Shown here piece after piece: positions 804-16,611 of a stretch of 32,000 bases of DNA (positions are counted from its first letter, which is position 1; each line of letters starts with the position of its first letter). The DNA lies in NCBI GenBank assembly GCA_000091165.1, contig FP565575.1:120001-152000 (forward strand), written 5' to 3'. The position numbers were made by a program, and so were the translations under genes. The stretch comes from Candidatus Methylomirabilis oxygeniifera (GTDB taxonomy: Bacteria > Methylomirabilota > Methylomirabilia > Methylomirabilales > Methylomirabilaceae). The notes under the pieces are model-generated. The model was given only the letters and a program-made list of their open reading frames with translations. It ran no database searches and was not told where the DNA came from.

Positions 804-2645
804 ATGAGTGTGAAACGTCGTATGTCACTGATCGGAGGTCTGCTGGTTTTGGCCGGCAGCCTTGCGATATCGGCGCCTATCGTCTCAGCTAATGATGATG
901 TGTTGAAGCTTCAAAAAGATGATGGCCAGTGGGTAGTCCAGAGCAAGAACTATTCAGGGACCCGCTACAGCACCCTGAACCAGATTACGCCCGAAAACGC
1001 AAAAAATCTCAAAGTCGCCTGGTCGTTCTCCTTGGGGACGCTAAACGGCCAGCAGGGCGGCCCGCTGGTTGTCGGCGACACAATGTATGCCCATAGCTCA
1101 TACGCTGGAGGCCCTACAGGTCACTCGCACAACATCTTTGCGCTCGACCTATCCAAGGAAGGAGCGCCGATCAAGTGGCGGTATAATGCGAAGTATGACC
1201 AAAAGGCACCTCCCGTCGCCTGCTGCGACTTAGTTCATAAGGGCCTACAGTATGCGAACGGCAAGATCCTGTACCAGACGCTTGATGGAATGGTGATCGC
1301 TCTTGATGCCAAGACCGGCAAGGAGCTCTGGAAGACTCGGAACGCCGACCCCTCCAAGGGTGAGACGAGCACTGCCGCCGGCCTGGTGATTAAAGATAAG
1401 TATATCGCCGGTGTCGCCGGGGGCGAGTTCGGGGTGCGCGGCTGGGTGGCGGCCTACGACATCAATACCGGCAAGCAGGTCTGGAAGGCCCGCAGCATGG
1501 GGCCCGATGAAGAGATCAAGCTTGCCCCTGATTTCAATGCCGCCAACCCGCATTACGGACGATTCGGCGAGGGGACCAAGAGTTGGCCCGGCGAGATGTG
1601 GAAACAGGGCGGCGGTACGACCTGGGGCTATTATGCGTACGATCCTGAGCTGAACCTGCTTTACTACGGTAGCGGCAACCCAGGGACCTGGAATCCCGCC
1701 CCTCGGAAAGGCGGCGATAACAAGTGGTCGATGACTATCTGGGCTCGCAATCCCGACACTGGGGTGGCCAAGTGGGCCTATCAGATGACCCCGTGGGATA
1801 ACTGGGACTACGATGGGATCGATGAATCCGTTTTGACCGAGCAGACATTCGGTGGCAAGAAGCGGAAGGTGCTCACGCACTTTGACCGCAATGGGTTCGT
1901 CTACACACTGGATCGAGCGGATGGAACCTTGCTGGCCGCTGATGCCTTCGTCTATGTCAACTGGGCGAAGGGGATCGACCTGAAGACGGGGCGGCCGATC
2001 TTGAATCCGGAGAAGCTCACCAAGCAGGGTGAAGACACCAAGAATATCTGCCCCTGCGCAATGGGTGGTAAGAACTATTTGCCGGTTGCATACTCCCCGC
2101 TGACGAACCTCTTCTACGCGTCCGTCAACAACATGTGTATGAGCTATGAAGGCGTTCAGGTTCAGTATACGGCGGGGGCTCCGTACGTGGGCGCCACCGT
2201 TCTGATGTATGAAGGCCACGAAGGTAAAGACGTCGGCTATTGGGGCGACTTCATTGCCTGGGATGTCGTCAAAGGAAAAAGGGCGTGGGCCATTAAAGAG
2301 AGTCAGCCCCCATGGAGCGGGCCCGTAGTGACTTCTACAAATGTGGTCTTCTACGGCACGATGGACGGCTGGTTCAAGGCGGTCGATGCGCGAGATGGAA
2401 AGCTCTTGTGGAAGCACAAGGTCGGTTCCGGGATTATCGGTAATCCGATCACCTACAAGGGGCCTGACGGCAAGCAGTATGTTGCCGTGTACTCCGGTGT
2501 CGGCGGGTGGTTTGGCGCTACTGTGTCGCTCGACTTGCCGCCGGACGATCCGACGGCTGCATTGGGCGGCGTGAATGCTGCCTACAAGTCCGGTTTGCCC
2601 ATGGCAACGACTAAGGGCGGGACACTTTACGTGTTTGGCCTGTAA
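804..2645 (+). CDS. xoxF: PQQ-dependent methanol dehydrogenase, XoxF (lanthanide) type
   Basis: 613-aa ORF with a Sec signal peptide (...SAPIVSA/NDD). It has the vicinal Cys pair 'PPVACCDL' typical of PQQ quinoproteins. It also has 'WDNWDYDGIDE', with the extra Asp (DYD rather than DYA) diagnostic of XoxF. A GAGGGAGG RBS lies about 6 nt upstream of the ATG. No mxaI-like small-subunit gene follows. Confidence 0.9.
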   Translation: MSVKRRMSLIGGLLVLAGSLAISAPIVSANDDVLKLQKDDGQWVVQSKNYSGTRYSTLNQITPENAKNLKVAWSFSLGTLNGQQGGPLVVGDTMYAHSSYAGGPTGHSHNIFALDLSKEGAPIKWRYNAKYDQKAPPVACCDLVHKGLQYANGKILYQTLDGMVIALDAKTGKELWKTRNADPSKGETSTAAGLVIKDKYIAGVAGGEFGVRGWVAAYDINTGKQVWKARSMGPDEEIKLAPDFNAANPHYGRFGEGTKSWPGEMWKQGGGTTWGYYAYDPELNLLYYGSGNPGTWNPAPRKGGDNKWSMTIWARNPDTGVAKWAYQMTPWDNWDYDGIDESVLTEQTFGGKKRKVLTHFDRNGFVYTLDRADGTLLAADAFVYVNWAKGIDLKTGRPILNPEKLTKQGEDTKNICPCAMGGKNYLPVAYSPLTNLFYASVNNMCMSYEGVQVQYTAGAPYVGATVLMYEGHEGKDVGYWGDFIAWDVVKGKRAWAIKESQPPWSGPVVTSTNVVFYGTMDGWFKAVDARDGKLLWKHKVGSGIIGNPITYKGPDGKQYVAVYSGVGGWFGATVSLDLPPDDPTAALGGVNAAYKSGLPMATTKGGTLYVFGL

Positions 2646-2660
2646 GCGAGTATGTCTGAT

Positions 2661-2701
2661 ACCGGCGCCGAAGGATTGTATCTTCGGCGCCGGTTTTTTA
2701 T
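2661..2701 (+). terminator. rho-independent terminator after xoxF
   Basis: Perfect 13-bp GC-rich stem accggcgccgaag (2661-2673) / cttcggcgccggt (2682-2694) with an 8-nt loop, followed by a T6 run. It starts 16 nt after the xoxF stop. Confidence 0.8.
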
Positions 2702-2750
2702 GCTATGCTACAACCAGTCAGCATGTAGCGATCAACACCGGGCGTGCGAG

Positions 2751-2812
2751 ACTGAAGGCGGAGATAGACCAAAAGCTGAAGAGTCAAGGATCTAATCCTA
2801 AAAGCCTTCAGT
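2751..2812. repeat. degenerate copy of the CTGAAGG palindromic element family
   Basis: 9-bp inverted repeat actgaaggc (2751-2759) / gccttcagt (2804-2812). It carries internal 'gatagac' and 'ctgaag' words shared with the elements at 22883-23003, 31433-31540 and 31835-31950. Confidence 0.35.
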
Positions 2813-2834
2813 ATGAACCCCTGAGCAAGGAAGA

Positions 2835-3731
2835 ATGGGTATGAGTCGAAGACTTGCAGTTGTTGGTGGATTGGTTGTTGTGATGTTCCTGTTTCCCTTT
2901 GCCTGGCAGGCCTGGGGGGGGCATGTCAACCCGCTCCGTGTCTGTGGCGATCCGAACAACCTGCCGTTCTCCAACAAGCAATCAGAAGGATTTGAGAATA
3001 AGATCGCTGAAGTGATCGCGAAAGAGCTTGGGACGGAGCTGACTTACTTCTGGTGGCCGCATCAGCATGGGTTAGTTCGGAGAGCGTTGAAACCGGGACT
3101 CTGTGATGTCATGATCTCGATCCCTCAGGGTTGGGATCGGGTTCTCTGGACCAAGCCTTATTACCGCTCGGCGTATACCCTTGTGTACCCCAAGGATCGA
3201 GGATTTCAGATCAGATCGCTTGACGACCCGATCCTGAAGCGCCTCAAGATCGGGGTCTATATCAATTCCCCACCGGCAGAGGCGTTAGCGAATAGAGGTA
3301 TCACGACAAACGTTGTCGGCTATAGCCCCTATTATGATTCCTTGACCGAACGCCGGGATAAAATTCTCCAGGATTTGATTGCCGGTGAGATTGATGTCGT
3401 ACTGGATTGGGGACCAATGGTCGGCTATTTTGTGAAACGGGTGAATAGTGGATCACAACCTCTTGAGGTAGTCCTTCTTCAGGGTGGGGAGCCAGGGAGT
3501 CCCTTCACCTTCGAGTTCTCCATGGGAGTGAAGGAGGGTAATACGGCACTCAAAGCTGAGCTGGAACAGGCGATCAGTAAGCGGCGCGCCGAAATCGGAA
3601 AAATCCTGGAAGAGTATGGTGTGCCCATTCTGCCGCTGCTGGCGCGCGAGCAGTTTCCAAAAGTAGAAGAAAAGCCTGGAGTGATCTTCTACCGCAGTTT
3701 CGATCGAGAGGACCCCCTTCCCTCTTATTAA
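2835..3731 (+). CDS. xoxJ: XoxJ/MxaJ-type periplasmic binding protein associated with quinoprotein dehydrogenases
   Basis: Signal peptide followed by 'LRVCGDPNNLPFSNKQSEGFENKIAEVIAKELG' and 'TKPYYRSAYTLV', the N-terminal signature of MoxJ-like family-3 solute-binding proteins. It lies directly downstream of xoxF. The start could instead be the ATG at 2841 (AAGGAAG RBS). Confidence 0.8.
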   Translation: MGMSRRLAVVGGLVVVMFLFPFAWQAWGGHVNPLRVCGDPNNLPFSNKQSEGFENKIAEVIAKELGTELTYFWWPHQHGLVRRALKPGLCDVMISIPQGWDRVLWTKPYYRSAYTLVYPKDRGFQIRSLDDPILKRLKIGVYINSPPAEALANRGITTNVVGYSPYYDSLTERRDKILQDLIAGEIDVVLDWGPMVGYFVKRVNSGSQPLEVVLLQGGEPGSPFTFEFSMGVKEGNTALKAELEQAISKRRAEIGKILEEYGVPILPLLAREQFPKVEEKPGVIFYRSFDREDPLPSY

Positions 3732-3782
3732 CGCAGAGCAAAAGGGGCAACCATCACCTAAGAAGAACGAGGACCAGTGACC

Positions 3783-4277
3783 ATGCTACAGAAAAAGACA
3801 CTTCTCGTCGTTTCAGTTCTAGGCCTTGTGATGTTGGGATGTGTCCAGAGTCTCACGGCTCAGACCCAGCAAGCTCCGGCGAAGACAACAGAATACGCTC
3901 AAGCGCAATCTGGTGAACAACCGAAAGGACCGGAGACCCCCGCACCTGCCGATCAGCAGAAGCCCAAAAAGCTCAATCCCTTTACCGGGAACGCAGACGC
4001 GATCAAAGCGGGACGGCAATTGTATCTGGAGAAAGGCTGTCCAGGCTGCCATGGTTCGGGTGGTGGTGGGGCGATGGCCGGCGCCACGGCATTCATACGT
4101 GATACTTGGAAATTTGCTGGTGACGACGACACCTACTTCAAAGTGATCAAGGGGACCTATCCAGGACAGACCATGCCGGCGGTCTTCGGGGCTACCCTGA
4201 CAGATGAGGAGACATGGAAAATTATTGCCTGGATCCGGTCGATCTATAAAGGGGATCCGGAGAGGATCGTGTGGTAA
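3783..4277 (+). CDS. xoxG: mono-heme c-type cytochrome (XoxG position), possibly lipid-anchored
   Basis: Single CxxCH motif ('CPGCHG') and a downstream 'GQTMP' candidate Met ligand. The N-terminal hydrophobic segment ends in 'VMLGC' (lipobox-like), followed by a Pro/Gln/Lys-rich linker. A GAGGA RBS lies 9 nt before ATG 3783; the ORF track starts at GTG 3777. Confidence 0.7.
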   Translation: MLQKKTLLVVSVLGLVMLGCVQSLTAQTQQAPAKTTEYAQAQSGEQPKGPETPAPADQQKPKKLNPFTGNADAIKAGRQLYLEKGCPGCHGSGGGGAMAGATAFIRDTWKFAGDDDTYFKVIKGTYPGQTMPAVFGATLTDEETWKIIAWIRSIYKGDPERIVW

Positions 4278-5873: not shown

Positions 5874-6356
5874 CTATGCTTGAACAAGGTCAGGGGTAAG
5901 GACCCACAGCAGTCGGAAGCCTCTTTCGGTCTTGGCGAGACAGATCATTGTCCCCGTCTCCGGTCGAATGATCTCCGTCCCGCTATTGCCCAGCACTAGA
6001 GCTGAAACGAGGCGGCCCAGGTGTGGAAGATGGCCTACCAACATCAGCGGCTCTTCAGCGGCATCCAGCTCTGCGTGGACTCTCTCTGGATCTGCTCCTG
6101 GCGAGAGACCCTCCACCTCCCGAAGTCCGAGCTGTGGTAGCAGGTATTCGGCGAGAATCTCTGCGGTCTGCCGGGCTCGGAGCCTGTCCGAGTGACGAAT
6201 CTCAGCGACCTCAACTCCAATGGACGCCGCGTACCTGGCGACTCGCATGATTTCCTCGCGCCCGTGGTCGCTGAGCGGCTTCGCCGGGTCCTCACGCTCG
6301 GATTGTGATTCGCCATGTCGTACGAGATAGTGCAGGACGGGCTTCTCTACGGTCAT
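5874..6356 (-). CDS. sixA: phosphohistidine phosphatase SixA-like (histidine phosphatase superfamily)
   Basis: 'LVRHGES' RHG catalytic motif near the N-terminus, 'LSDHGREE', 'RARQTAEIL' and 'VGHLPHL'. Size is about 160 aa, as for SixA. Confidence 0.75.
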   Translation of the reverse strand: MTVEKPVLHYLVRHGESQSEREDPAKPLSDHGREEIMRVARYAASIGVEVAEIRHSDRLRARQTAEILAEYLLPQLGLREVEGLSPGADPERVHAELDAAEEPLMLVGHLPHLGRLVSALVLGNSGTEIIRPETGTMICLAKTERGFRLLWVLTPDLVQA

Positions 6357-6358
6357 TT

Positions 6359-6892
6359 TTACCCCCGGCGATAGGTGCCCATCAGCTCAGTCTGCGCCAG
6401 GATGTGACCCTGCATCGCCTTCTCCAGATCCTTCTTCGTCGTACTAGACGGCAGATCCAGCGTAGTATCGAGCGCGTATAACTTAAAGTAATACCGGTGA
6501 GTGCCGGATGGCGGGCAGGGACCGCCATACCCGACCCGGTGGAAGTCGGTCGTACCCTGCTTGGCCCCATTCGCAAGTGAAGCCGTCTTGGCAAGATTCT
6601 CTTCGAGAGTACGGGCGCTCACGGGGATGTTCCAGAGCACCCAGTGGACCCATGTTCCCATCGGTGCATCCGGATCGTCAGAGATGAGGGCGAAGCTCAT
6701 GGTGGTGGCTGGAGGGTCAGACCAGCTCAGCGGCGGAGAGATGTCTTGTCCATCACACGTGTACTTGGCCGGAATCATCTTATCAGCCTGAAACGCCTGA
6801 CTCTTCAGTTCCATACTCGTCCCCCCTGCGCCGATCAGCAGCGCCGCGAATCCCGCCACCACCAACCTCGCAAGTACATTCAAGAAAACCAT
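6359..6892 (-). CDS. YbhB/YbcL-family PEBP (Raf-kinase-inhibitor-like) protein, exported
   Basis: 'DGQDISPPLSWSDPP', 'ALISDDPDAP', 'WVHWVLWNIP' and 'GYGGPCPPSGTHRYYFKLYALD' are canonical bacterial PEBP motifs. It has an N-terminal signal peptide. Its stop lies 2 nt before the sixA start. Confidence 0.85.
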   Translation of the reverse strand: MVFLNVLARLVVAGFAALLIGAGGTSMELKSQAFQADKMIPAKYTCDGQDISPPLSWSDPPATTMSFALISDDPDAPMGTWVHWVLWNIPVSARTLEENLAKTASLANGAKQGTTDFHRVGYGGPCPPSGTHRYYFKLYALDTTLDLPSSTTKKDLEKAMQGHILAQTELMGTYRRG

Positions 6893-7180: not shown

Positions 7181-7342
7181 AACGAAGACATTCGCTGCCT
7201 ACATACTTAGGCAAGGCTCAATAGGCGGAAGCGGACGTCAATACGTTGTACAAGCCTGGTCTCCTGAGCTCGTTTCGGTGGCGAGCATAGGGTTTCAGAT
7301 GGTGGGATGGTGAGCCTGACCAATCGTCCGATAGCGGGGCCT

Positions 7343-8584
7343 TCACGTATTCTCCATCGACTGCCGGTACCAGGATTGGTCGTACCCCTTCAACTCCACC
7401 TTCTCCGTATCCTTCAGGATATCGAAGGGCGACCTGGATTCCACCATCACAGCGATCTCGTCTCGGAATGGCAGGTCCTTCGGACGAGAAGCCTCCTCCC
7501 GAGCAATATCGGCCAGGAGCCTCAGATCCGGACCGTGGGCCAGACCGGCCGGGTGAAATGTCATGAATCCGTCCGTGATCTCGGGCCGCACGCCGTACGC
7601 CTTGTGGTTGAAGAGGGCCTCATCGACCCAATTGAGATGGTGATACGGCAGGCTGTGGATCCACCGGGGGAGGAAAACCTGCATCGCCATCCCTTCATCC
7701 TCGCTCACGAAGACCGTAAGCTTCTTCGGATCGAGGTGAACGTGTGGCGAGGACAGCGCCACCAGATCGTCGAGGCGCAGGATGAACGGCCACACCTCTC
7801 CCTCCCACGCCACGGCATCAAAGACCGGCGCTGCGTATGTGAGCAACGTGAGGCTGCCCCGCCGTCTTTTGACGACAACCTGTGTGGCCTCATCGTTGCC
7901 GAGCGGCGGATGGAGGGCGGCAAGAGGCGTCGGTTCCGGTGGAATCGGCGCGGCCGGCGAAAAGGGCCAGGGCTGCTGATCCCCCATCCAGTAGTCATAG
8001 GGGCGACACAGCCGTTTCGGAATTTCATAGAGGAGGATGGACACCCTTCCGGTCAAGAGAAACGAATAGGTGGTGCCTCGCGGGAGGAACACGAAATCGC
8101 CCTCCCGAATCTCCTCGATCAGCCCGAAATCGGTAATGAGCCTCAAGGGGTGTTCGGCCAGATGCACAAAATAGAGCTCATGGCAGTCCGCATGACGAGC
8201 GGCCGGTTGCCACTTCCCGGCTTCTCCGAAATCCCCATTACAGACCCGAATGGTGACATCGCTGCTCGAGAGGACAGGGACGAAGGAGCCGAACGTGGCC
8301 ATCTCTGCGACGTGGAAGGCTCGCCTCTGGAGAGGACGATCCTCCCCCATTGGCCGTTCGACGTGCGCTTTGAATAAGGGGTGGTCAGCGGGAATCGTCG
8401 CGCTTTCGACGACGGCGGTTGGAGGGCGTTCCATCAGGAGTTCCGTACCGAACTCAAGCTTGTAGCTCGAAAGGTCTCTCGGAGGGCGGCCGCTCCCGTG
8501 CCAGTCTGCAAGAGCCGTCTGGTAGTCAGACCGGATCCGTCGCTCGGTCCGTGTCAGGTTCATAAGCTTTGGAACGTACTCCAT
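7343..8584 (-). CDS. homogentisate 1,2-dioxygenase-family (cupin) dioxygenase
   Basis: 413 aa. 'SLPYHHLNWVDEALF' and 'FHPAGLAHGP' resemble the HGD Fe-ligand region as I recall it (PYYHRN..SEFMG ... H....PHGP). A GGAGAGGA RBS lies upstream of ATG 8584. Confidence 0.7.
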   Translation of the reverse strand: MEYVPKLMNLTRTERRIRSDYQTALADWHGSGRPPRDLSSYKLEFGTELLMERPPTAVVESATIPADHPLFKAHVERPMGEDRPLQRRAFHVAEMATFGSFVPVLSSSDVTIRVCNGDFGEAGKWQPAARHADCHELYFVHLAEHPLRLITDFGLIEEIREGDFVFLPRGTTYSFLLTGRVSILLYEIPKRLCRPYDYWMGDQQPWPFSPAAPIPPEPTPLAALHPPLGNDEATQVVVKRRRGSLTLLTYAAPVFDAVAWEGEVWPFILRLDDLVALSSPHVHLDPKKLTVFVSEDEGMAMQVFLPRWIHSLPYHHLNWVDEALFNHKAYGVRPEITDGFMTFHPAGLAHGPDLRLLADIAREEASRPKDLPFRDEIAVMVESRSPFDILKDTEKVELKGYDQSWYRQSMENT

Positions 8585-8612
8585 CGTCGTCTATCCTCTC
8601 CGCACACGCATC

Positions 8613-9296
8613 TCATTCTGTGAACGGGTCCCAGTCCGGCGGAATGGCGTCGAAGTCGAGGATCCAGATCGATTTGCCGGCCTCCTGGAGTTCCTCCAGG
8701 CACCGATACAGCGCCTGGACTGTGGCATGGTGGAAATGAGTAGGATCGCGTTCAAACAGGTCGAGGCGTTGATTGAGCTCGAGGAAGGGGCCGGCCGCCG
8801 GGTTCGGCGAGCGGAAGAGCGAGCCTGTGAACATCTGCAGGAGCCGGCTCCGATCATCATACAGGATGGGCGTGGTATAACGGACCCCCAACCGCTCCGT
8901 AATCCGACGATACGCTTCGATCGATCCTCCCTCGATACGGAGTGCGATGTGCTGGATCCCTTCCCCACAGCACTTGATGATGTGTGAGACCTGCGACTCG
9001 CCCCCCCGGTCGATGCCCTCCACCGGGGCGATATAGCCGGCTCCCGGCATCTCACCGAGCTGGATAGCGACCGTCTTCATGCTGGAAGGGGCTGCTGGAT
9101 CATTGACATCGTGGCTCTTGTAGGTCACCTGACCTCCCTGGAGTGCGCGCATGAACAGATAGGCGGTCTCCCGGAGGCTCTGTGTCGCGAGCGCCGCATG
9201 ATCGAGCTTCAACGTGAATGCGCCCCACAGTTCTGCCAGGAGGAGATCCCGTTCCGCCTCGCTCAAGCCGCCTGGCCCGCGCTGCGCTTTATCCAT
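8613..9296 (-). CDS. single-module 4-hydroxyphenylpyruvate dioxygenase-like (VOC superfamily) protein
   Basis: 227 aa. 'KLDHAAL', 'GIQHIALRI', 'LLQMFT' and 'FLELNQR' parallel the HPPD C-terminal-domain motifs (IDH.., G.QHIAL, LLQIFT, FFE.IQR), including candidate His/His/Glu ligands. The N-terminal HPPD domain is missing. An AAGGAG RBS overlaps the end of the upstream gene. Confidence 0.6.
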   Translation of the reverse strand: MDKAQRGPGGLSEAERDLLLAELWGAFTLKLDHAALATQSLRETAYLFMRALQGGQVTYKSHDVNDPAAPSSMKTVAIQLGEMPGAGYIAPVEGIDRGGESQVSHIIKCCGEGIQHIALRIEGGSIEAYRRITERLGVRYTTPILYDDRSRLLQMFTGSLFRSPNPAAGPFLELNQRLDLFERDPTHFHHATVQALYRCLEELQEAGKSIWILDFDAIPPDWDPFTE

Positions 9297-9300
9297 TCGT

Positions 9301-10062
9301 CTAACTCCTTCGGGTAAAGCTGTTCTTCAGGATTCCGATCCCCTCGACCTCCATCTCTATGGTGTCTACCGTATCGCCATCGACAAGCCAAGGGTACTGC
9401 CTCAAGGTCTCGGCGATGGAGCCGCCGGCGAACGTCCCGGACCCGACGAGTGTTCCGGCTTCGAGAATTAAGGGTTGTTGGGAGAGGTAGGCGCAGATTT
9501 TCGGAAAGGTCCACAACGTCGAGTCGGTACACGCCTGGGCTTCCAGACGAACCTCGCCGTTTACCCGTAGGACGATGTAAGGGTTTCGCTTCGCGAACTC
9601 CGCATACGGTACAAACCGTGGACCCAGCACCTTCCCGAGGATCGACTTACTCCGCGCGGGGCCAAGCCCGAGTTGAACGTCCTCGGCCTGAAGACACCGA
9701 CAGGACAGATCGTTGAGGATGGTCACGCGGCCATGCGCCTGCAGAAACTTCTCCGCCTCTGCTTCAGTCCATCCTTCTTGTGTTCCCTGATCGAGCAGGA
9801 GCGCGACTTCGAACTCATAGTCCGGTTTTCGAATCGAGCGTGGGATGCACACCTTCTCACCGGAGTCGTGGATCTCGTGCCGGCCAAGGGCGAGCGCGTA
9901 ATACGCCCACCGTACCCTGCGGAGCTCAAGACTTTTTTGAATCTCTTCCTCGCTGCGTCCCGAACTCCTACCCATGCCGATGATGTGTCTGGCATCGGAG
10001 ACGCCGTCCAGGAACCGGACCGGATAGGTGAGATAGTCCTTGATCGAGGCAGCGGTGGTCAT
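9301..10062 (-). CDS. fumarylacetoacetate hydrolase (FAH) family protein
   Basis: 'PDYEFEVALLL', 'ILNDLSCRCLQ', 'LRVNGEVRLEA' and 'LILEAGTLVGSGTFAGG' follow the FAH-family pattern. ATG 10062 overlaps the upstream stop (ATGA). The Arg-rich 84-aa extension in the track ORF is discarded. Confidence 0.8.
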   Translation of the reverse strand: MTTAASIKDYLTYPVRFLDGVSDARHIIGMGRSSGRSEEEIQKSLELRRVRWAYYALALGRHEIHDSGEKVCIPRSIRKPDYEFEVALLLDQGTQEGWTEAEAEKFLQAHGRVTILNDLSCRCLQAEDVQLGLGPARSKSILGKVLGPRFVPYAEFAKRNPYIVLRVNGEVRLEAQACTDSTLWTFPKICAYLSQQPLILEAGTLVGSGTFAGGSIAETLRQYPWLVDGDTVDTIEMEVEGIGILKNSFTRRS

Positions 10063-10748
10063 GCTCGTCCCCCACTCAGGCGAGCGATGATCTCCGCGCT
10101 CGCCTCTTGCCAGGGACGCAGTCGGGGCGCATTCGCGGGGCAGGCATCCGGGCTGTGATTCGTGACGGCGACGTGGAACGCGATGTACAGGTTGTCGGGA
10201 AATTTGCGTCGAAGCTCCTCGTTGAGTGACGAGGTCCCAAGGGCGATCGCGGCTGTGCCGATGACCTTGCCGCCGCTCTGAGCGGCCGCGTCCGGCAGGC
10301 GAAATCCGATACACCGACCGCCGGTCAAACTGGTCAGATTGAACGTCAACACCGTTGCTTCGGCAGGAAAGTTTCCCTCGATGGTGTCGCCGAATCGCCC
10401 GCTGGGCTTGGTCTCGAGGTAGACCGGCCTGGCATCGACAGCTCTCGACAGCTTCTCGACGAAGCGCCGGACCGGATCAGTCCCCGGAGCGAAAATGACG
10501 TGAGGCCGAAGGCCCTTCGCCGTCATCCATCGCGCGACATCTTCGACGAGCCATGAAGCAAATTCCGGGAACTGAACGATCGCCTCGGTGGAGAAGTAGG
10601 CTTCGAGATGCACCTGTGGTCCATCATAATCAGAGGGGTACGCCAGATGCTGTCCGGTGGAGAACGGATTTGCCTCCTTGATGATCCTGCTCGTTCGCTC
10701 TGCATCAAAGGTCGGCGATACGAGCGTCACACCTTCAGCGATCCTCAT
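10059..10748 (-). CDS. hypothetical protein, possibly PRTase-like fold
   Basis: 'HVIFAPGTDPVRRFVEKLS' and 'ATVLTFNLTSLTGGR' resemble the type-I phosphoribosyltransferase core and PRPP loop, but the acidic pair is replaced by F-N. ATG 10748 has a GGGGA RBS. An alternative TTG at 10772 would overlap the upstream stop. Confidence 0.5.
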   Translation of the reverse strand: MRIAEGVTLVSPTFDAERTSRIIKEANPFSTGQHLAYPSDYDGPQVHLEAYFSTEAIVQFPEFASWLVEDVARWMTAKGLRPHVIFAPGTDPVRRFVEKLSRAVDARPVYLETKPSGRFGDTIEGNFPAEATVLTFNLTSLTGGRCIGFRLPDAAAQSGGKVIGTAAIALGTSSLNEELRRKFPDNLYIAFHVAVTNHSPDACPANAPRLRPWQEASAEIIARLSGGRA

Positions 10749-10768
10749 CGAAGAATCCCCAGTGTCCG

Positions 10769-11578
10769 TCAAGCGAGCGCCTTTCTGGCCGAGTTGAGCC
10801 CGTCCCAGAAAATATAGAGGGCATCAAGCGCTCGTCGCCCGCCCTCTATGAACTTGTCTTCATCGAACTTGGGGTGAGAGAAGGTCTCCCGAAGCTCGCC
10901 GTACACGTTCTCCCCATGCCCCGTTTCAAGCTCGAAGTGATGCTCGAAAAAGCCGAGAGGGACCGGCTCCAGGCCATATGCCAGACGCTGTGTTTCATTG
11001 TAGCCCTTCAGTCCGATAATGAGCTGCTTCCAGAAATTTCTGGACTCCGCTTCCTCGCCTTTCCCGATTCCCCACGCCGCCCACGTCTCGATTCCGTAAC
11101 TGGCGCCGCCGGCAAGCCGCCAGTCGAGGCTTCCATACGCCTTCTCAAGTTCAACCAGAAAGCGCCGTGTCGGTGGGGTGGCGGTTCTCCAGTTGCCGAG
11201 CCGTTCCGGATCCAGTTTCAGTGGCGCGCACGTCTCGCGCAACCACTCGATATGGGCCCACTCCGTTCTGAACGGCTGGTTCTCCGGGCTCTTATCCGGG
11301 CCAAGTCTCACGCCGCATTCGTTCACCAGGATGTGGCGCGCCAGCTTTTCGCTTTCAAGGTTGGTTGCGCGGGCGACTCGCTTGGCTTGTATCGGGACGA
11401 AATGCTTGGAAAAGACTGCGAACTGTTCAAGGAAATGGATGACTTGATCGGTATTGGCTTTCCCGCGGCTGAACCAGGCACAGAACCTGTTGTTCCTGAT
11501 CGCTTGATGCCGATGAATCTTCAGTTCGACCTTCTTCCAAAAGGCATCAAATCGCTTGTGTCGGCCACCGCTCTGCAT
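10769..11578 (-). CDS. heme-oxygenase-like fold, putative diiron redox enzyme (PqqC/TenA/CADD-like)
   Basis: 269 aa, all-helical, with Glu/His-rich helices ('FLEQFAVFSKHF', 'VNECGV', 'EWAHIEWL', 'YGIETWAA', 'FFEHHFELETGHGE') as in iron-containing redox enzyme family proteins. A GGAGAAGG RBS precedes ATG 11578. Confidence 0.6.
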   Translation of the reverse strand: MQSGGRHKRFDAFWKKVELKIHRHQAIRNNRFCAWFSRGKANTDQVIHFLEQFAVFSKHFVPIQAKRVARATNLESEKLARHILVNECGVRLGPDKSPENQPFRTEWAHIEWLRETCAPLKLDPERLGNWRTATPPTRRFLVELEKAYGSLDWRLAGGASYGIETWAAWGIGKGEEAESRNFWKQLIIGLKGYNETQRLAYGLEPVPLGFFEHHFELETGHGENVYGELRETFSHPKFDEDKFIEGGRRALDALYIFWDGLNSARKALA

Positions 11579-11675
11579 GGCGCCTTCTCCGACATGAGGA
11601 GATCAATGGCGGTGATGAGGAGCCCACCAAGGATCAGGATAAGATATTATAAACGGCTGTGTTATAACTACTTGT

Positions 11676-11704
11676 AATCTAATCTGTTCCCATCAGTACG
11701 TCAA
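11676..11704 (-). promoter_or_regulatory. sigma-70-type promoter candidate for the five-gene operon
   Basis: On the minus strand: TTGACG (11704-11699), 17-nt spacer, TAGATT (11681-11676). A TTATAA-N9-TTATAA dyad (11647-11667) lies just downstream. Confidence 0.3.
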
Positions 11705-11716
11705 GGAGCTATGCTC

Positions 11717-11793
11717 TCTGACACGACGATGATCTACACCCACGTATTGAATCTGGGCGAACGGGAGTCAATAGCCCGGTTGATCGGCTATAG
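11717..11793 (+). pseudogene. tyrosine recombinase (integron-integrase/Xer-like) 3' remnant, frameshifted
   Basis: Reads 'SDTTMIYTHVLN' (11717-11752). After a 2-nt offset it reads 'GRTGVNSPVDRL*' (11755-11793). Together these match the conserved C-terminus '..TTMIYTHVLN.GG.GV.SP.D.L', including the catalytic Tyr. Nothing upstream resembles the rest of the enzyme. Confidence 0.6.
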
Positions 11794-12009
11794 GGCGACC
11801 AGGATAGGCCGCCAAAGCTGGCAGCGTTTGTCGGCCAGAATAGTCTTGACCGCTTGGGGTACGTGTGGGATATAGCGAACAAATTCGTCGTTGAGAAGTG
11901 GAGCCGTCTTGGGCGATAGGCCGCCGGTCTTTGTCGGCTTCTAAAGCGGCTCACTTATAGTTCGGCGGCGACTTGTCCGCGGTTATCCTCTATGGGATAA
12001 TGTTGGTCG

Positions 12010-12243
12010 ATGCACTTCGAGATCATTGGCTCGATCACCGACGTCGAAACAATCGCGGCAGGCGGCAGCGTCCGCATACTGCCAGTGCTCCGCAAGCAAT
12101 ACGGTTCAGGCCACTGGAGAAAACTGAAAGGCATTGCCACGGTTCGCCTGACCGATCGAACAATGCGGCTGGCCGAAGTGCATTGGTTTGAAGCACATGG
12201 TATCGGCAAACGGAAAATGCGCATCAAGCGTTTCTTGGACTGA
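12010..12243 (+). CDS. small conserved hypothetical protein
   Basis: 77 aa, 'FEIIGSI..VETIAAGGSVR...LRKQYGSGHWRKLKGIATVRL...AEVHWFEAHGIGKRKMRIK'. I recognise this as a recurrent small-protein family in environmental genomes, of unknown function. Its stop lies 3 nt before the next ORF. Confidence 0.5.
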   Translation: MHFEIIGSITDVETIAAGGSVRILPVLRKQYGSGHWRKLKGIATVRLTDRTMRLAEVHWFEAHGIGKRKMRIKRFLD

Positions 12244-12246
12244 GCT

Positions 12247-12549
12247 ATGACCACTAAACTTCAAAAGCCACGGCAGCGATTCGCCATCTGCATCAACACC
12301 GACGACGCGGATTTGTTGACACCCCGGATGGTTTATCAAGTCTTGCCGGACGAGAGCGCGGCCAAATCGGACTACATTCGGGTCATTGATAACGAAGGCG
12401 AGGATTACTTGTATCCGGCCCGGTATTTCGTGCTCGTCGATTTTCCACAGCCGGTGAAGCGCGCGCTATTACGCACGCGGGCGCCGGTCATGCGCAGCGT
12501 AGCTACTGAACGTAGTCGCGTAACCTCCGCGCAGCGGAAAAACCTTTAA
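12247..12549 (+). CDS. small conserved hypothetical protein (partner of 12010-12243)
   Basis: 100 aa, 'FAICINTDDADLLTPRMVYQVLPDESAAKSDYIRVIDNEGEDYLYPARYFVLVDFPQPVKRAL'. This family is typically found adjacent to the preceding one. Confidence 0.5.
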   Translation: MTTKLQKPRQRFAICINTDDADLLTPRMVYQVLPDESAAKSDYIRVIDNEGEDYLYPARYFVLVDFPQPVKRALLRTRAPVMRSVATERSRVTSAQRKNL

Positions 12550-12903
12550 CGTCTGGTCGCCCAACGCGCGGTTACGGCTGTCCCCCGACCGTGCTACCCA
12601 TCAAGGTCATCGGTGCGCGTGGGCAATTGGCCCGCCATAGTTCGTCTCATTGAGGTAGTCTTAGGGTAAAAGTCGTTTGAATCCAGATTGCGTGAAGTGC
12701 TTATCGAAGGTAAAAGCCCATCGGCCGCGAAGGCGCTCCATCACCACTCTGGTCGCGGGAAAACAGCTTGCCCCCGGTTGCCCTTCGCGCTAAATTATGA
12801 GTGTGCATGCCGGATCTTGACTGTGACTGGGGGCGGCATCGGGTGGTGGGCGGCGTAAGGGCTTAGTCAGTAGTGGTGGGGGTGAGAAACCCAATACAAT
12901 ACC

Positions 12904-12943
12904 AAGAGCAGGAAGCCGTGAGGCGACCTGCTCTTATTGTTTT
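12904..12943 (+). promoter_or_regulatory. terminator-like hairpin immediately upstream of the aldehyde dehydrogenase RBS
   Basis: 9-bp stem aagagcagg (12904-12912) / cctgctctt (12927-12935) with a 14-nt loop, followed by aTTgTTTT. A GAGGAGG RBS lies at 12944-12950 and the ATG at 12958. Confidence 0.4.
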
Positions 12944-12957
12944 GAGGAGGTAGGCCG

Positions 12958-14448
12958 ATGGACGGGAAGAACTATATCGCAGGGAGATGGGTAGAGGCGG
13001 TCGGAGGAGCCAGATTTGAAAGTCGTAATCCCGCCAGATTTGGTCAGGTGCTCGGGACTGTGGCCTTGTCGAATCGGGAGGATGCGGAGCAGGCGGTTGT
13101 GGCCGCGAAGACGGCTTTTGCCGGCTGGCGTGCGCTGTCGCGAATAAAAAGGGGGGAGTATCTCGATCGATTCATCGATGCGATCAAGGTCCAGGTCGAC
13201 GAGATCACAAGCTTTGTGGCATCGGAGGCCGGCAAGGCGTATAACGAGGCCAAAGCCGATGTCGTTGAAGGGATCCATATGGCGCAGTATATGTTCGGCC
13301 ACGCGCGGCTCCCTTCCGGTCAGGCCCTTCCCTCGGAGCTTGCCGAGAAGGACGCGTATATGTTCCGCAAGCCGAAAGGGGTGGTGACGGTGATCAGTCC
13401 CTGGAATTTCCCCTTCGCGATTCCCATCTGGCTGATCACCCCGGCCTTGCTCGAAGGGAATACGGTGGTTTTCAAACCGTCCGGGAACACCCCGTTGGTG
13501 GGGGAGAAGATCGTTGAGTGCTTTGAACGGGCCGAGCTTCCGCCTGGTGTTCTGAACCTCGTCCAGGGCACCGGAGGGGATGCTGGGTGGCCTCTGGTGA
13601 CCCATCCCGACGTCGAGGTCGTCCTCTTTACCGGCTCATATGAGGTAGGATCACGGATCAAGGAGGCGTGCGTCAAGGACTATCGGAAGATGTATGCCTG
13701 CGAGATGGGCGGGAAGAATGCGATGATCGTCTGCCAGGACGCCGACCTTGATCTGGCCGTCCGGGCCGCGATTCTCAGCGCCTTTAAGACGACCGGCCAG
13801 CGCTGTACCTCGGCCTCTCGCCTCATCATCCATGAGAGTCGGATGGAGGAGTTCGCGAAGGCCTTTGTCGCTATGGCACGGCGGATTGTCATTGGCGATC
13901 CCCTCGATCCTCAGGTCTTCATGGGCCCGCTCATTAACGAGGCGGCGATGAAGAAGGTCGGCTCTTATAATCTGCTGGCGAAGCAGGAAGGGGCTGAGGT
14001 GCTCCTGGATGGCGGGCGCCTGGAGGAAGGGGCCTATCGGGACGGCTACTTCTTCAGCCCCTTCATCTATCGCATGGCGCATCGGAAAGATGCCCGGGTA
14101 CTCCACGAGGAGGTCTTTGGACCCCACGTGGCTCTGATCCCCTTCCAAACGCTGGACGAGGCCGTGGCCATCCACAACGGTGTGGAGTATGGCCTGGCCT
14201 GCTCCGTGATCACCGAAGATTATCGGATCGCCCGTCGTCTTCGGGAGGAATGCGAGTTCGGTGTTGGGTATTGGAATCTGCCCACCATCGGCGCCGAGGT
14301 ACACCTGCCGTTCGGCGGACTGAAGAAGAGCGGGACGGGTGTTCCGGCGTCCTGGCCTTTGCTGGATCTCGTGACGCACAAGGTGGCATGGACGGTCAAT
14401 CATGGTCGCGAGATCAGGATGGCGCAAGGTCTGAGCACCGAGGTGTAG
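12958..14448 (+). CDS. NAD(P)-dependent aldehyde dehydrogenase family protein
   Basis: 496 aa. It has 'ISPWNFPF', 'FKPS', 'FTGSYEVGSRI', the catalytic Glu in 'EMGGKNAMIV' and the catalytic Cys in 'GQRCTSASRL'. Confidence 0.9.
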   Translation: MDGKNYIAGRWVEAVGGARFESRNPARFGQVLGTVALSNREDAEQAVVAAKTAFAGWRALSRIKRGEYLDRFIDAIKVQVDEITSFVASEAGKAYNEAKADVVEGIHMAQYMFGHARLPSGQALPSELAEKDAYMFRKPKGVVTVISPWNFPFAIPIWLITPALLEGNTVVFKPSGNTPLVGEKIVECFERAELPPGVLNLVQGTGGDAGWPLVTHPDVEVVLFTGSYEVGSRIKEACVKDYRKMYACEMGGKNAMIVCQDADLDLAVRAAILSAFKTTGQRCTSASRLIIHESRMEEFAKAFVAMARRIVIGDPLDPQVFMGPLINEAAMKKVGSYNLLAKQEGAEVLLDGGRLEEGAYRDGYFFSPFIYRMAHRKDARVLHEEVFGPHVALIPFQTLDEAVAIHNGVEYGLACSVITEDYRIARRLREECEFGVGYWNLPTIGAEVHLPFGGLKKSGTGVPASWPLLDLVTHKVAWTVNHGREIRMAQGLSTEV

Positions 14449-14450
14449 CC

Positions 14451-15257
14451 ATGACCCGGCTGCTGATGTGTCATCCCGACTATTACGGGATTTACTACGA
14501 GATCAACCCCTGGATGGATCGAAGGCGCCAGGCGGACCGGGCAGTTGCCATACGGCAGTGGGAGGCGTTGTATCGACTGCTCACTGAAACATTAGGGGTC
14601 CGGGTGGAGTTGCTGCCGTCTGTTCCTGGGCTGCCTGATCTTTGCTTTACCGCGAACGCCGGACTTCTGATGAGCAGCCTGTTCGTGAGCAGTCGTTTCC
14701 GATATCATGAGCGTGAGGCGGAAGTTCCTCATGTTACACAGTGGTTTGCAGAGCGGAATTACAGGGTCGCATGTCTTCCTGAACCCGTCTTCTTTGAGGG
14801 GGAGGGGGATGCGCTGTTTTGCGGGAATGACCTGTTCTCCGGGTATCGCTTTCGTTCGGAGCTGCAGGCCCATCACCTGCTCGCGGAGCTTTTTGGGCTG
14901 CACGTTTATTCCCTGGAGCTGACCGATCCATGGTTTTACCACCTGGATACCTGTTTCTGTCCGCTCCAGCCAGGCCGGGCAGCGTACTATCCGGAGGCGT
15001 TCAGCCCAGCCTCGCAGCGGCTTTTGAAAGAGACGACCCCAGAGCTCTTCCCGGTGACGGCGGCAGAGGCCAAACGGTTGGCCTGCAATGCGCTGGTCAT
15101 CGGACAGTCGGTGATCCTCAATGCCGGCTGCCCCCATCTGGCTCGGACGCTCAGCGAGGCCGGGTATCAGGTTCACGAGGTCGAGACGACGGAGTTTCTT
15201 AAGGCCGGAGGCGGGCCCAAGTGCCTGACCCTCTTTCTTGAACGGGATGGATTATGA
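14451..15257 (+). CDS. guanidino-group-modifying enzyme (amidinotransferase/DDAH/arginine-dihydrolase-like)
   Basis: 268 aa from ATG 14451, 2 nt after the ALDH stop. It starts 'LLMCHPDYYGIYYEINPWMD' and ends 'GGGPKCLTL', with a near-C-terminal Cys positioned as the catalytic residue of this superfamily. The upstream 67 aa of the track ORF overlap the ALDH. Confidence 0.75.
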   Translation: MTRLLMCHPDYYGIYYEINPWMDRRRQADRAVAIRQWEALYRLLTETLGVRVELLPSVPGLPDLCFTANAGLLMSSLFVSSRFRYHEREAEVPHVTQWFAERNYRVACLPEPVFFEGEGDALFCGNDLFSGYRFRSELQAHHLLAELFGLHVYSLELTDPWFYHLDTCFCPLQPGRAAYYPEAFSPASQRLLKETTPELFPVTAAEAKRLACNALVIGQSVILNAGCPHLARTLSEAGYQVHEVETTEFLKAGGGPKCLTLFLERDGL

Positions 15258-16441
15258 GTCATTGGATCGAGTTGGATAAGCGGTACTTCATGGATACCGG
15301 TCACCGGCGTCTCGGGGTGACGCTCGTGCGCGGGGAGGGGGCGAGGGTCTGGGATGATGCCGGGAAAGAATATCTTGACTTCATTGCCGGATGGGCTGCC
15401 TGTAGCCTCGGCCACTGCCATCCTATTATCCAGGAGGCCCTTCGGGAACAGTCAAAGCGCCTTATCCTGGCGAGCCTGGATGTCTATACGATTCCCCAGA
15501 TCGAGTTGGCTGAGCTACTCATCTCCTTGAGCGGTTTGGCCAAGATCTTCTTCTGCAATAGCGGAGCAGAGGCAAACGAGGGCGCTGTTAAGCTGGCCAG
15601 GAAGCATGGGAAGTTGCACCTGAATGGCGCTTATGAGGTTATCTCGGCCCTGAAGAGCTTCCATGGTCGGACATTGGCGATGGTGGCCGCGACGGGTAAG
15701 CCGGAGTATCAGGCGCCCTTTACTCCGCTCCCTGAAGGATTCAGAAACGTCCCATACAACGATATCGCAGCCCTGCGGGCCGCTGTCGGTGAGCGGACCT
15801 GTGCAATCCTGCTGGAGCCGATCCAGGGCGAGGGCGGGGTGAACGTTCCGCCTGAGCACTATCTGAAGGAGGTCCGCACGCTCTGCGACGAGCGGGGCCT
15901 TTTGCTCATTCTGGACGAGGTCCAGACGGGCTGCGGTCGAACCGGGACCCTGTGGGCACACGAGGGTTTCGGTATCAGGCCGGACATCATGACGATAGGC
16001 AAGGGGTTGGGCGGCGGGGTTCCTATCGCTGCGTTTCTGGCCAACGAACGGGCCGCCTGTTTTGGTCCGGGAGATCACGGCTCCACCTATGGCGGCAATC
16101 CGCTCTGCTCTGCAGTCGCCGGTGCGGTGTTGCGGTTTATCATGAAGGAAGATCTGCCGGGTAACGCGGTACGGGTGGGAAGCTACTTCCGGGAGCGGCT
16201 CCTGGGCTTACAAGAGGAGTGGGATCTCGTGAAGGAGGTTCGGGGCCGCGGCCTGCTCCTGGCGATGGAGTTCACGAAGCCGATCGCGCTGGCAATGGCT
16301 CAGGCCTGCTGCGAACGGGGCCTGCTGGTGAACCCGATCCCGCCGCAGACAATCCGGTTTATGCCGCCCCTGATTATCACCCGACAGGACGTGGATCAGG
16401 CCATTATGATCCTGGATGCCGCCATCAGGCAGATCAAGTAG
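15254..16441 (+). CDS. class-III PLP aminotransferase (acetylornithine/ornithine aminotransferase-like)
   Basis: 395 aa. It has 'LDFIAGWAACSLGHCHP', 'NSGAEANEGAVKLAR', 'LILDEVQTGCGRTG' and 'TIGKGLGGG' (Schiff-base Lys). Its ATG overlaps the upstream stop (ATGA at 15254-15257). Confidence 0.9.
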   Translation: MSHWIELDKRYFMDTGHRRLGVTLVRGEGARVWDDAGKEYLDFIAGWAACSLGHCHPIIQEALREQSKRLILASLDVYTIPQIELAELLISLSGLAKIFFCNSGAEANEGAVKLARKHGKLHLNGAYEVISALKSFHGRTLAMVAATGKPEYQAPFTPLPEGFRNVPYNDIAALRAAVGERTCAILLEPIQGEGGVNVPPEHYLKEVRTLCDERGLLLILDEVQTGCGRTGTLWAHEGFGIRPDIMTIGKGLGGGVPIAAFLANERAACFGPGDHGSTYGGNPLCSAVAGAVLRFIMKEDLPGNAVRVGSYFRERLLGLQEEWDLVKEVRGRGLLLAMEFTKPIALAMAQACCERGLLVNPIPPQTIRFMPPLIITRQDVDQAIMILDAAIRQIK

Positions 16442-16520
16442 GTGGTGGCCATACCCGAGGCCGTTCGCGAAGGCAATAGGATGGGTTCTAACCTTTCCCA
16501 GAAAATCCTATTTGTCAAAT

Positions 16521-16559: not shown

Positions 16560-16611
16560 TTTTGTATGCCGTGGTGCCGGGTCCGGACTTTCATGGTGAT
16601 GGAGGATAGTG

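Follow-up and report, generated by a model that had tools for sequence, protein, structure and literature searches.

The closest described counterpart of the genes reported here is the canonical homogentisate pathway, which consists of 4-hydroxyphenylpyruvate dioxygenase (HPPD), homogentisate-1,2-dioxygenase (HGD; HmgA), maleylacetoacetate isomerase (HmgC/MaiA) and fumarylacetoacetase (FAH; HmgB/FahA), and is encoded by VC1344–VC1347 in Vibrio cholerae and by hmgABC in Pseudomonas putida. Thiol-dependent cis-trans isomerases comparable to the third enzyme include the glutathione S-transferase (GST)-zeta proteins MaiA and NagL, mycothiol- and cysteine-dependent maleylpyruvate isomerases, and a maleate isomerase with a catalytic Cys. 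The heme-oxygenase-like dimetal proteins (HDOs) are a separate group, which bind their metals through three His and three carboxylate ligands (3His/3carboxylate), including an H-x3-D/E-x2-H motif on core helix 3 (PMC13108848). About a dozen HDO reactions have been validated, none of them in primary aromatic catabolism, and the characterised members mostly use free amino acids or fatty acids as substrates (2026 review, PMC13108848). Here we analysed a stretch of 32 kb (the window; contig FP565575.1, positions 120,001–152,000) from the nitrite-dependent methane oxidiser Candidatus Methylomirabilis oxyfera (also named oxygeniifera; NC10), and describe a five-gene operon, G1–G5, in which three homogentisate-pathway superfamilies are joined by an HDO (G1) and by a protein apparently derived from orotate phosphoribosyltransferase (OPRT; G2). 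With somewhat better than even confidence, we read this operon as encoding a non-canonical pathway of homogentisate-type ring cleavage. Its substrate would be an aromatic amino acid or an aryl-2-oxo acid, and tyrosine, entering by way of 4-hydroxyphenylpyruvate, is the most likely candidate.

G1–G5 are five minus-strand open reading frames (ORFs) that run in the same direction, and their exact limits in the ORF list of the stretch are 7343–11578 (Table 1). All five gene products are identical to the deposited proteins CBE67256.1–CBE67260.1. Two starts were moved downstream, that of G2 from a TTG at 10772 (listed ORF 10059–10772) and that of G3 from an upstream GTG, because homolog lengths (226–229 aa for G2) and the deposited proteins agree on the ATG codons. 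The genes are as tightly packed as the original prediction had proposed (ATGA-type overlaps or gaps of at most 28 nt): G1 and G2 lie 20 nt apart, G2 and G3 share an ATGA overlap (10062–10059), and gaps of 4 and 28 nt separate G3 from G4 and G4 from G5. Each gene has many homologs with 70–96% identity in other NC10 genomes, and the order G1-G2-G3-G4-G5 is kept in M. limnetica (L008) and in a second NC10 metagenome-assembled genome (MAG; L009), which establishes the five as real genes and not chance ORFs. The flanks are likewise kept in these two genomes, with a xoxF-type PQQ dehydrogenase cluster through to PEBP and histidine-phosphatase genes on one side and an operon led by an aldehyde dehydrogenase on the other. 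Long antisense ORFs with low-complexity, Arg/Pro-rich translations lie opposite G5, G1 and G3; nothing was found to support them as genes, and they were regarded as shadow ORFs of a GC-rich coding region.

Three of the genes encode relatives of homogentisate-pathway enzymes. G3 matches PF01557 with an E-value of 1e-23 (84.6 bits, cut-off 23.9), and an E-x-E...D metal motif (YEFEVA, LNDLS) can be recognised by eye. Against the fumarylacetoacetase model TIGR01266 it scores 20.8 bits (cut-off 375.3), it has no FAA_hydrolase_N domain, and its 253 aa compare with ~420 aa in the two-domain type. These sequence features clearly place G3 among the small-type enzymes of the FAH superfamily.

The assignment of G4 required more sensitive comparisons. 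A Pfam search gave no match, and the 4HPPD model TIGR01263 gave 20.6 bits (cut-off 277; E = 2.6e-4) over residues 92–142. PDB searches returned nothing for the single sequence and no HPPD for the family profile. When G4 was aligned with full-length HPPDs using hhalign, its residues 30–203 corresponded to HPPD residues 168–370, with an E-value of 2.8e-4 and a probability of only 41%. The residues H33, H116 and E173, which are invariant across the G4 family, fall on the Fe(II) triad H171, H257 and E347 of the Nitronereus HPPD, and the HPPD signature motifs SQ(V/I), GIQHIAL, LLQ(M/I)F and F-x-E-x-x-QR are matched. In addition, an archaeal family of 258-aa mini-HPPDs bridges the two groups, with a probability of 98% (E = 1e-14) against G4 and 85% (E = 7e-6) against HPPD. 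The aligned Fe triad and the bridging family indicate that in G4 little more than a shortened catalytic domain of HPPD is left; of the two-domain VOC architecture (~350–380 aa), the C-terminal catalytic domain alone is present.

G5 gave no match in a Pfam scan (PF04209, PF20510) at E ≤ 0.1, while several of its close homologs carry a precomputed PF04209 match. The protein matches TIGR01015 with E = 9e-10 (37.8 bits, cut-off 510.75). In the PDB, the single sequence found 1ey2 at 9e-4, and a profile of 26 family sequences found the HGDs 1ey2 (human) at 3e-25 and 3zds (P. putida) at 7e-23. The Fe ligands of human HGD, H335, E341 and H371, are matched by H316, E322 and H350 of G5, and its substrate His H292 by H283. 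This triad and the H292 equivalent are conserved without exception in the G5 clade, the archaeal clade and the nitrite-oxidiser clade (26 and 7 sequences). Judged from these alignments, G5 is a divergent homogentisate dioxygenase with its Fe triad in place. Its UniProt name refers to V. cholerae VC_1345 (VC1345), a short HGD-family protein validated genetically as a homogentisate oxygenase, since its loss leads to homogentisate pigment and its restoration abolishes the pigment (PMC3114702).

G1 passes the Pfam model PF14518 (Haem_oxygenas_2) marginally (30.0 bits, cut-off 28.9) and stays below the cut-off of PF03070 (14 bits versus 22). PDB sequence searches gave no significant match with either the single sequence or the family profile. 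The AlphaFold2 (AF2) model is all-helical with a pLDDT of 91.7 and has the seven-helix heme-oxygenase-like fold. Its top Foldseek match in the PDB is CADD/CT610 (8vag, 1rcw; E = 2e-6, 18% identity, TM 0.79 on target), followed by BesC, PqqC and FlcD, then TenA and UndA; all top matches are heme-oxygenase-like. Six residues, E87, H109, E164, H214, E218 and H221, are invariant among 22 homologs of 43–90% identity. They make up the full 3His/3carboxylate set, including H214-x3-E218-x2-H221, as mapped onto the metal sites by pattern. The complete dimetal ligand set therefore separates G1 from the metal-free proteins PqqC and TenA and places it in an HDO clade that has no characterised member.

A function of G1 in PQQ biosynthesis, which its PqqC-like fold and the xoxF-type cluster 6.5 kb away might suggest, was ruled out on the grounds of the dimetal ligands, the relatives of G1 in tyrosine-pathway clusters of nitrite oxidisers, and the lack of other pqq-like genes. 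The window scans found neither pqq nor thi genes near G1; the PQQ-dependent dehydrogenase itself lies at the distance just given.

G2 was the most difficult protein to place. Neither G2 nor 15 relatives (16 family members) gave any Pfam match, Pribosyltran included; TIGR01367 gave 12.6 bits (cut-off 150), and a PDB search with the single sequence found nothing. A full HMMER scan of 1.8 billion representative proteins returned 22 relatives, mostly of ~225 aa and 29–36% identical. The profile of this family found 4paw (H. pylori HP1257, a Thermus-type OPRT) at E = 1e-7 and other OPRT/APRT structures weakly, in an alignment with 4paw that spans the N-terminal SGxH motif to the C-terminal CPxC motif. 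At the phosphoribosyl pyrophosphate (PRPP) loop, 'VCEDIITTGKS' of 4paw lies opposite 'VFNGVSxxGRC' in the G2 family, and the NC10 protein reads 'TFNLTSLTGGRC'. The acidic E-D pair of 4paw is N-G in the family and N-L in NC10, so the protein has neither the two acidic residues nor the T-T-G-x-T/S loop. The residues H34, H47, G144, C203 and P204 are invariant in the family alignment; of the conserved Cys, one lies in the former 5-phosphate loop (GRC) and another is C203. The AF2 model is poor (pLDDT 52), since all usable homologs are at least 72% identical, and serves for the fold class only; its Foldseek matches in the PDB are nearly all OPRT and other type I phosphoribosyltransferase (PRT)-fold proteins, plus two PRPP synthetases.

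We conclude from these comparisons that G2 is an OPRT-derived pseudo-phosphoribosyltransferase (pseudo-PRTase) of the type I PRT fold that would not bind PRPP in the usual way. A function as a working PRTase, for instance in an RFAP-synthase-like step with p-aminobenzoate, was ruled out, as the acidic PRPP pair is lost family-wide. The original prediction had described the five products as a heme-oxygenase-like diiron-type protein, a PRTase-like protein with a non-acidic PRPP loop ('TFNLTSLTGG'), an FAH, an HPPD-like single module and an HGD-like enzyme. All five assignments hold, and the named motif does sit at the PRPP-loop position; most of them are matters of remote homology, and none reaches equivalog level.

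The gene order, whose recurrence had been put forward as a check, recurs in the form of modules in several phyla and in archaea. The first module is the G4–G5 pair. Relatives of G5 at ~50% identity always have a G4 homolog (233–239 aa, 61–67% identical) directly before them, and these G4 homologs are more conserved than G5 itself. The pair was found in four unrelated contigs, including a Bradymonadaceae MAG and metagenome contigs, one of which (L001) has a 56%-identical G3 ortholog after it. On three contigs (L005–L007), an NAD-dependent epimerase/dehydratase and a family-1/4 glycosyltransferase follow the pair on the opposite strand, with no FAH nearby. More distant G5 relatives in Dehalococcoidia (44% identity) are accompanied by an IclR regulator, a luciferase-like monooxygenase, an ABC importer and a fumarylacetoacetase of the two-domain type. 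In M. limnetica, and in this species only, a 467-aa gene of the tryptophanase/tyrosine-phenol-lyase family lies between the G4 and G5 orthologs (402 bits against NF009709, cut-off 285), which hints at an aromatic amino acid as substrate of the operon.

The second module combines G2 with FAH. Scanning 185,579 species genomes with a narrow G2-family alignment yielded 19 loci in Thermoplasmata and other archaeal MAGs, Obscuribacterales/Melainabacteria, Chloroflexota, Bryobacterales and Proteobacteria. At 17 of these loci a G3-like FAH gene adjoins the G2-like gene; the remaining two are cut off at that point by the end of the contig. In eight archaeal (Thermoplasmata) loci, an HGD-like gene lies upstream of the G2-like gene. 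Where the contig runs past FAH, the archaeal row reads HGD-like, G2-like, FAH and 258-aa single-domain HPPD-like, often with an aconitase first, so that four of the five NC10 genes recur as an archaeal cluster. A single-domain rhodanese (~123 aa) is encoded divergently upstream of the FAH–G2-like pair in six bacterial loci from several phyla, and a conserved ~380-aa protein without a Pfam match is encoded downstream of the pair in six loci. These neighbours could be a hint that the G2 family takes part in sulfur or thiol chemistry.

The third module is G1. A word-indexed search, which sees only relatives above ~45% identity, detected relatives of G1 (52–56% identical) in Nitrospinota (Nitrohelix, Nitrospinaceae) and Nitrospirales (Nitronereus). 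In every long contig examined, the G1-like gene stands tail-to-tail with genes for an acetoacetate-CoA ligase, an acetyl-CoA acetyltransferase, a flavin-reductase-like protein, an HgmA-like dioxygenase, an FAH and a full-length HPPD. The acetoacetate-CoA ligase passes the TIGR01217 equivalog cut-off; in the loci from Nitrospinota, a Na+-dependent transporter of the SNF family is encoded upstream. All three modules come together in the NC10 operon. On two of the contigs (L032, L033), an indole/phenylpyruvate-decarboxylase-like thiamine pyrophosphate (TPP) enzyme adjoins the G1-type HDO; it scores 387 bits against TIGR03394, below the cut-off, and the two copies are 65% identical to each other. 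The identity to the TPP enzyme of the window is only 28%.

Taking substrates and products from these homologies, metal ligands, operon structure and gene linkage, we infer the following route. G4 would carry out the O2-dependent decarboxylation and hydroxylation of an aryl-pyruvate, with 4-hydroxyphenylpyruvate as the likeliest substrate, and yield a hydroquinone acetate that resembles homogentisate. G5 would open the ring with Fe(II) and O2 to a maleylacetoacetate-type product, and G3 would cleave a C–C bond of the 1,3-dicarbonyl product to a C4 diacid and acetoacetate. G1 most likely acts before G4 and contributes a further O2-dependent step on the aromatic substrate, for example the hydroxylation of Phe to Tyr or the oxidative conversion of an amino acid to a 2-oxo acid; a monooxygenase stoichiometry would fit, given that a flavin reductase accompanies the nitrite-oxidiser clusters. 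Of the three or four O2-dependent steps proposed originally, three have a supported enzyme and a fourth does not. The predicted absence of maleylacetoacetate isomerase was borne out, as there is no GST-type (GST-zeta) protein among the scanned ORFs of the window.

G2 may work at this maleyl/fumaryl step, either as a glutathione-independent, thiol-type isomerase that replaces maleylacetoacetate isomerase or as a substrate-handling partner of the hydrolase. The proposal stems from its translational coupling to G3, its place beside FAH genes and, in archaea, between dioxygenase and hydrolase, and its conserved Cys. A chemical rationale can also be put forward: what the orotate pocket of an OPRT accommodates is a cis -OOC-C=C-C(=O)- unit locked in a ring, and the geometry of this unit is that of a maleyl group. 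We advance this specific role tentatively and regard it as doubtful, because the real OPRT-like protein 4paw has the same Cys/His motifs, the L001 locus has FAH without G2, the nitrite-oxidiser clusters lack G2, and the six rhodanese-associated loci lack HGD.

The context points to a catabolic direction of the homogentisate type and not to a biosynthetic cassette, given the acetoacetate-CoA ligase and thiolase of the G1-linked clusters, the two-domain fumarylacetoacetase beside G5 relatives, and the M. limnetica insertion together with the neighbouring arginine-catabolic operon described below. The non-canonical conversion foreseen originally, either catabolic or biosynthetic, is thereby narrowed: the chemistry is probably the known one, and it is the enzymes and the two accessory proteins that are non-canonical. 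A bolder form of this reading would be a glutathione-independent breakdown of aromatic amino acids on internally generated O2, with G2 as an OPRT-derived isomerase or obligatory FAH partner and the new HDO clade performing the entry reaction (hydroxylation or oxidative deamination); we consider this unlikely.

Several observations weigh against the homogentisate-type reading. The core enzymes lie far below equivalog cut-offs and hence might in truth act on other substrates, for example a different aryl- or alkyl-2-oxo acid. The host, M. oxyfera, lives as a methanotrophic autotroph and is not known to grow on amino acids. The window scans found no acetoacetate-activating genes (acetoacetate-CoA ligase, thiolase) near the NC10 operon, and we found no literature linking HDOs, PRT-like proteins, Methylomirabilis or glutathione-independent isomerases to homogentisate metabolism. 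G1-like genes are convergent with the nitrite-oxidiser cluster and are not co-transcribed with it. The part played by G2 is weakened further in that the six bacterial FAH–G2 loci have a rhodanese as neighbour in place of an HGD. The Bradymonadia-type G4–G5 contigs have neither FAH nor G2 nearby; together with the L001 locus, this means that G2 is not obligatory. Its Cys/His motifs may be ancestral and may represent no catalytic novelty, as 4paw shares them.

Some of the same evidence suits a biosynthetic cassette, in which HPPD-, HGD- and FAH-type chemistry and the HDO would make a small molecule, be it a cofactor, a signal or a hydroquinone, quinone or ring-opened metabolite. Nearly every characterised HDO belongs to natural-product or cofactor metabolism (PMC13108848), the host is an autotrophic methanotroph whose operon is devoid of acetoacetate-CoA ligase and thiolase, all enzymes are far from equivalog cut-offs, and the G4–G5 pairs in L005–L007 stand beside a glycosyltransferase and an NAD-epimerase. 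However, an FAH-type C–C hydrolase acting after ring cleavage destroys the scaffold, as is typical of catabolism, and the G1-linked clusters do contain acetoacetate-CoA ligase and thiolase. Relatives of G5 have a true fumarylacetoacetase in their neighbourhood, along with an IclR regulator and a transporter, and the window scans revealed no tailoring, carrier, export or resistance genes at the NC10 locus. We therefore regard a biosynthetic function as improbable, even if it is the strongest of the alternatives.

A slightly less probable explanation separates G1 from the other genes and makes it a self-sacrificing p-aminobenzoate synthase of the CADD/NePabS type, supplying a folate or methanopterin precursor beside an unrelated four-gene catabolic unit. 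CADD (CT610) is the top structural match of G1 and has the same 3His/3carboxylate ligand set (PMC13108848), its substrate is a tyrosine side chain, and a CADD-type route is known in another nitrifier, Nitrosomonas europaea. The sacrificial pair of CADD/NePabS is Tyr27/Lys152, ~14 Å from the cluster. Against such a function of G1, the identity is only 18%, no match is found at sequence level even by family profile, BesC, PqqC and FlcD follow close behind in the fold ranking, and the linkage of G1 to HPPD, HGD and FAH is conserved in three phyla with no folate genes.

Finally, the operon might remove damaged or modified tyrosine (3-nitrotyrosine, halogenated tyrosine or DOPA-type compounds) in cells handling nitrite, NO and internal O2, with G1 leading back to the homogentisate route by an extra oxidative step (denitration, hydroxylation). 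In its favour, the named close relatives of G1 are confined to NC10, Nitrospinota and Nitrospirales, nitrite/NO-transforming chemolithoautotrophs that all keep G1 beside HPPD, HGD and FAH genes and for which we know of no growth on tyrosine. The argument is circumstantial throughout: the taxonomic restriction may reflect sampling, given the identity limit of the search, most metagenome matches carry no taxonomy, and we know of no precedent for denitration by an HDO. We regard this explanation as very improbable.

The surroundings of the operon were surveyed as well (Table 1). A sigma-70-like promoter match lies upstream of G1; as four such sites were found in the region where 2.0 are expected, it is no evidence by itself. 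We found no tRNA, Rfam family or terminator-like site bearing on the operon. Downstream of G5, after a gap of ~450 nt, follow PEBP-family and histidine-phosphatase-family genes that are syntenic in all NC10 loci examined; they may or may not be on the G1–G5 transcript, and no terminator-like site was found. Beyond them lies a methanol dehydrogenase cluster of the xoxF/mxaF type, whose synteny extends to other NC10 genomes. It encodes a PQQ-dependent alcohol/methanol-dehydrogenase-type beta-propeller (613 aa), then an SBP_bac_3 protein (MxaJ/XoxJ-like) and then a c-type cytochrome.

Upstream of G1, a spacer of 1.4 kb contains only small ORFs without a Pfam match; in L009 the spacer carries an HTH_3/PIN toxin–antitoxin pair and a CAP-domain gene. 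It is followed by a divergent operon for an aldehyde dehydrogenase, an ArgZ-like arginine dihydrolase (266 bits against NF052232, below the cut-off), an ornithine/acetylornithine-type class III aminotransferase and a 5-guanidino-2-oxopentanoate-decarboxylase-like TPP enzyme. This looks like arginine catabolism and is conserved beside the oxygenase operon in NC10. A functional link between the two operons was rejected and the arginine operon was treated as a neighbour only, because the spacer varies among NC10 genomes. Farther away, a 602-aa protein with ScdA_N, an NnrS-like membrane region and DUF1858 has as neighbours an ORF with weak cytochrome-c'-like character and a protein of 486 aa whose COX1 match is borderline (34.8 bits, equal to the cut-off), possibly an NO- or O2-related membrane module in an NO-dismutating organism.

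Table 1. Coordinates of the operon genes, of other features of the window and of genes on related contigs.
Feature	Sequence	Coordinates	Strand	Remarks
G1, heme-oxygenase-like dimetal protein	window	10769–11578	-	269 aa
G2, predicted OPRT-derived pseudo-PRTase	window	10059–10748	-	229 aa; CBE67259.1; ATG at 10748
G3, small FAH-family enzyme (predicted)	window	9301–10062	-	253 aa; CBE67258.1; ATG at 10062
G4, predicted single-domain HPPD-like (VOC) Fe(II) dioxygenase module	window	8613–9296	-	227 aa; CBE67257.1
G5, predicted divergent HGD-family ring-cleavage dioxygenase	window	7343–8584	-	413 aa; CBE67256.1
Sigma-70-like promoter match	window	11676–11704	-	weak, consensus only; 9/12, TTGACG-17-TAGATT; ~100 nt upstream of G1 start
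Antisense ORF opposite G5	window	7307–8377	+	
Antisense ORF opposite G1	window	10874–11677	+	
Antisense ORF opposite G3	window	9673–10158	+	
Methanol dehydrogenase cluster	window	804–4277	+	
PEBP and histidine-phosphatase genes	window	5874–6892	-	
Spacer upstream of G1	window	11579–12957		
Small ORF in spacer	window	11955–12254	-	
Small ORF in spacer	window	12247–12549	+	
Aldehyde dehydrogenase-led operon	window	12958–18237	+	~1.4 kb from G1
ScdA_N/NnrS-like/DUF1858 protein	window	23675–25483	-	
Cytochrome-c'-like ORF	window	25606–26112	-	
Borderline COX1 match	window	26134–27594	-	
Epimerase/dehydratase and glycosyltransferase	L005	9271–11456		opposite strand to G4–G5
Epimerase/dehydratase and glycosyltransferase	L006	9340–11274		opposite strand to G4–G5
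Epimerase/dehydratase and glycosyltransferase	L007	7509–9652		opposite strand to G4–G5
Tryptophanase/tyrosine-phenol-lyase-family gene	L008	~10310–11719		
Rhodanese	L014	5536–5907	-	
Rhodanese	L017	9–383	-	
Rhodanese	L026	4916–5284	-	
Rhodanese	L027	4498–4878	-	
Rhodanese	L028	4569–4949	-	
Rhodanese	L029	5614–5997	-	
TPP enzyme	L032	9847–11511		
TPP enzyme	L033	7449–9116		

Three families without Pfam coverage or a characterised member, namely the HDO clade of G1, the single-domain HPPDs and the pseudo-PRTases descended from OPRT, are now linked by comparative genomics to homogentisate-type ring cleavage in bacteria and archaea, with concrete substrates to test. The G2 family is a candidate isomerase or helper at the maleylacetoacetate step where the GST-zeta isomerase is missing; if it proved to be the isomerase, this would explain the homogentisate pathway in archaea and other glutathione-free organisms. 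Methylomirabilis comes from anoxic habitats and is regarded as producing its O2 itself, from NO, chiefly to activate methane. With three O2-consuming enzymes, expression of the operon would show how this self-made O2 is budgeted. An HDO in primary catabolism would widen the dozen or so with known reactions (PMC13108848). If the operon serves ordinary tyrosine degradation, the result is a useful re-annotation and no discovery.

Among known systems, CADD (CT610)/NePabS resembles G1 in the seven-helix heme-oxygenase-like fold, the dimetal ligands and a tyrosine-related context. It differs in sequence (18% identity, no sequence-level match); G1 has 269 aa, with a ~20-residue insertion between the first Glu and the first His ligands, and stands among HPPD, HGD and FAH genes, whereas a CADD/NePabS-type context would be folate genes. 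The Thermus/Helicobacter-type OPRT (TIGR01367; 4paw) shares with G2 the type I PRT fold, an SGxH-type motif, a length of ~225 aa and CPxC. In G2, however, E-D of 4paw is replaced by N-G or N-L and the TTGKS phosphate loop by xxGRC, there is no Pfam Pribosyltran match, and G2-like genes lie beside FAH-family genes, whereas an OPRT-type context would be pyrimidine genes. The thiol-dependent isomerases are like G2 only in function and position, G2 occupying the place of hmgC/maiA beside dioxygenase and FAH genes and having conserved Cys; G2 is homologous to none of them and is absent from some clusters with the same FAH and HGD types.

The canonical homogentisate pathway differs from the NC10 operon in each of its enzymes. 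The HPPD of NC10 is a single catalytic domain of 227 aa compared with two domains and ~350–380 aa, its HGD of ~413 aa scores 38 bits against the 511-bit equivalog cut-off of canonical HGD, and its FAH is of the small 253-aa type, the FAH N-domain being found only in the canonical enzyme. The canonical GST-zeta isomerase has no counterpart in the NC10 window. Conversely, the HDO and the pseudo-PRTase have no counterpart in the canonical pathway, and we found no paper that would set a precedent for these additions. The two systems share the same three enzyme superfamilies, consistent with the sequence oxo-acid dioxygenase, ring-cleaving dioxygenase and C–C hydrolase, the conserved Fe ligands of HPPD and HGD, the operon layout and, through the relatives of the NC10 operon, the link to genes for acetoacetate utilisation.

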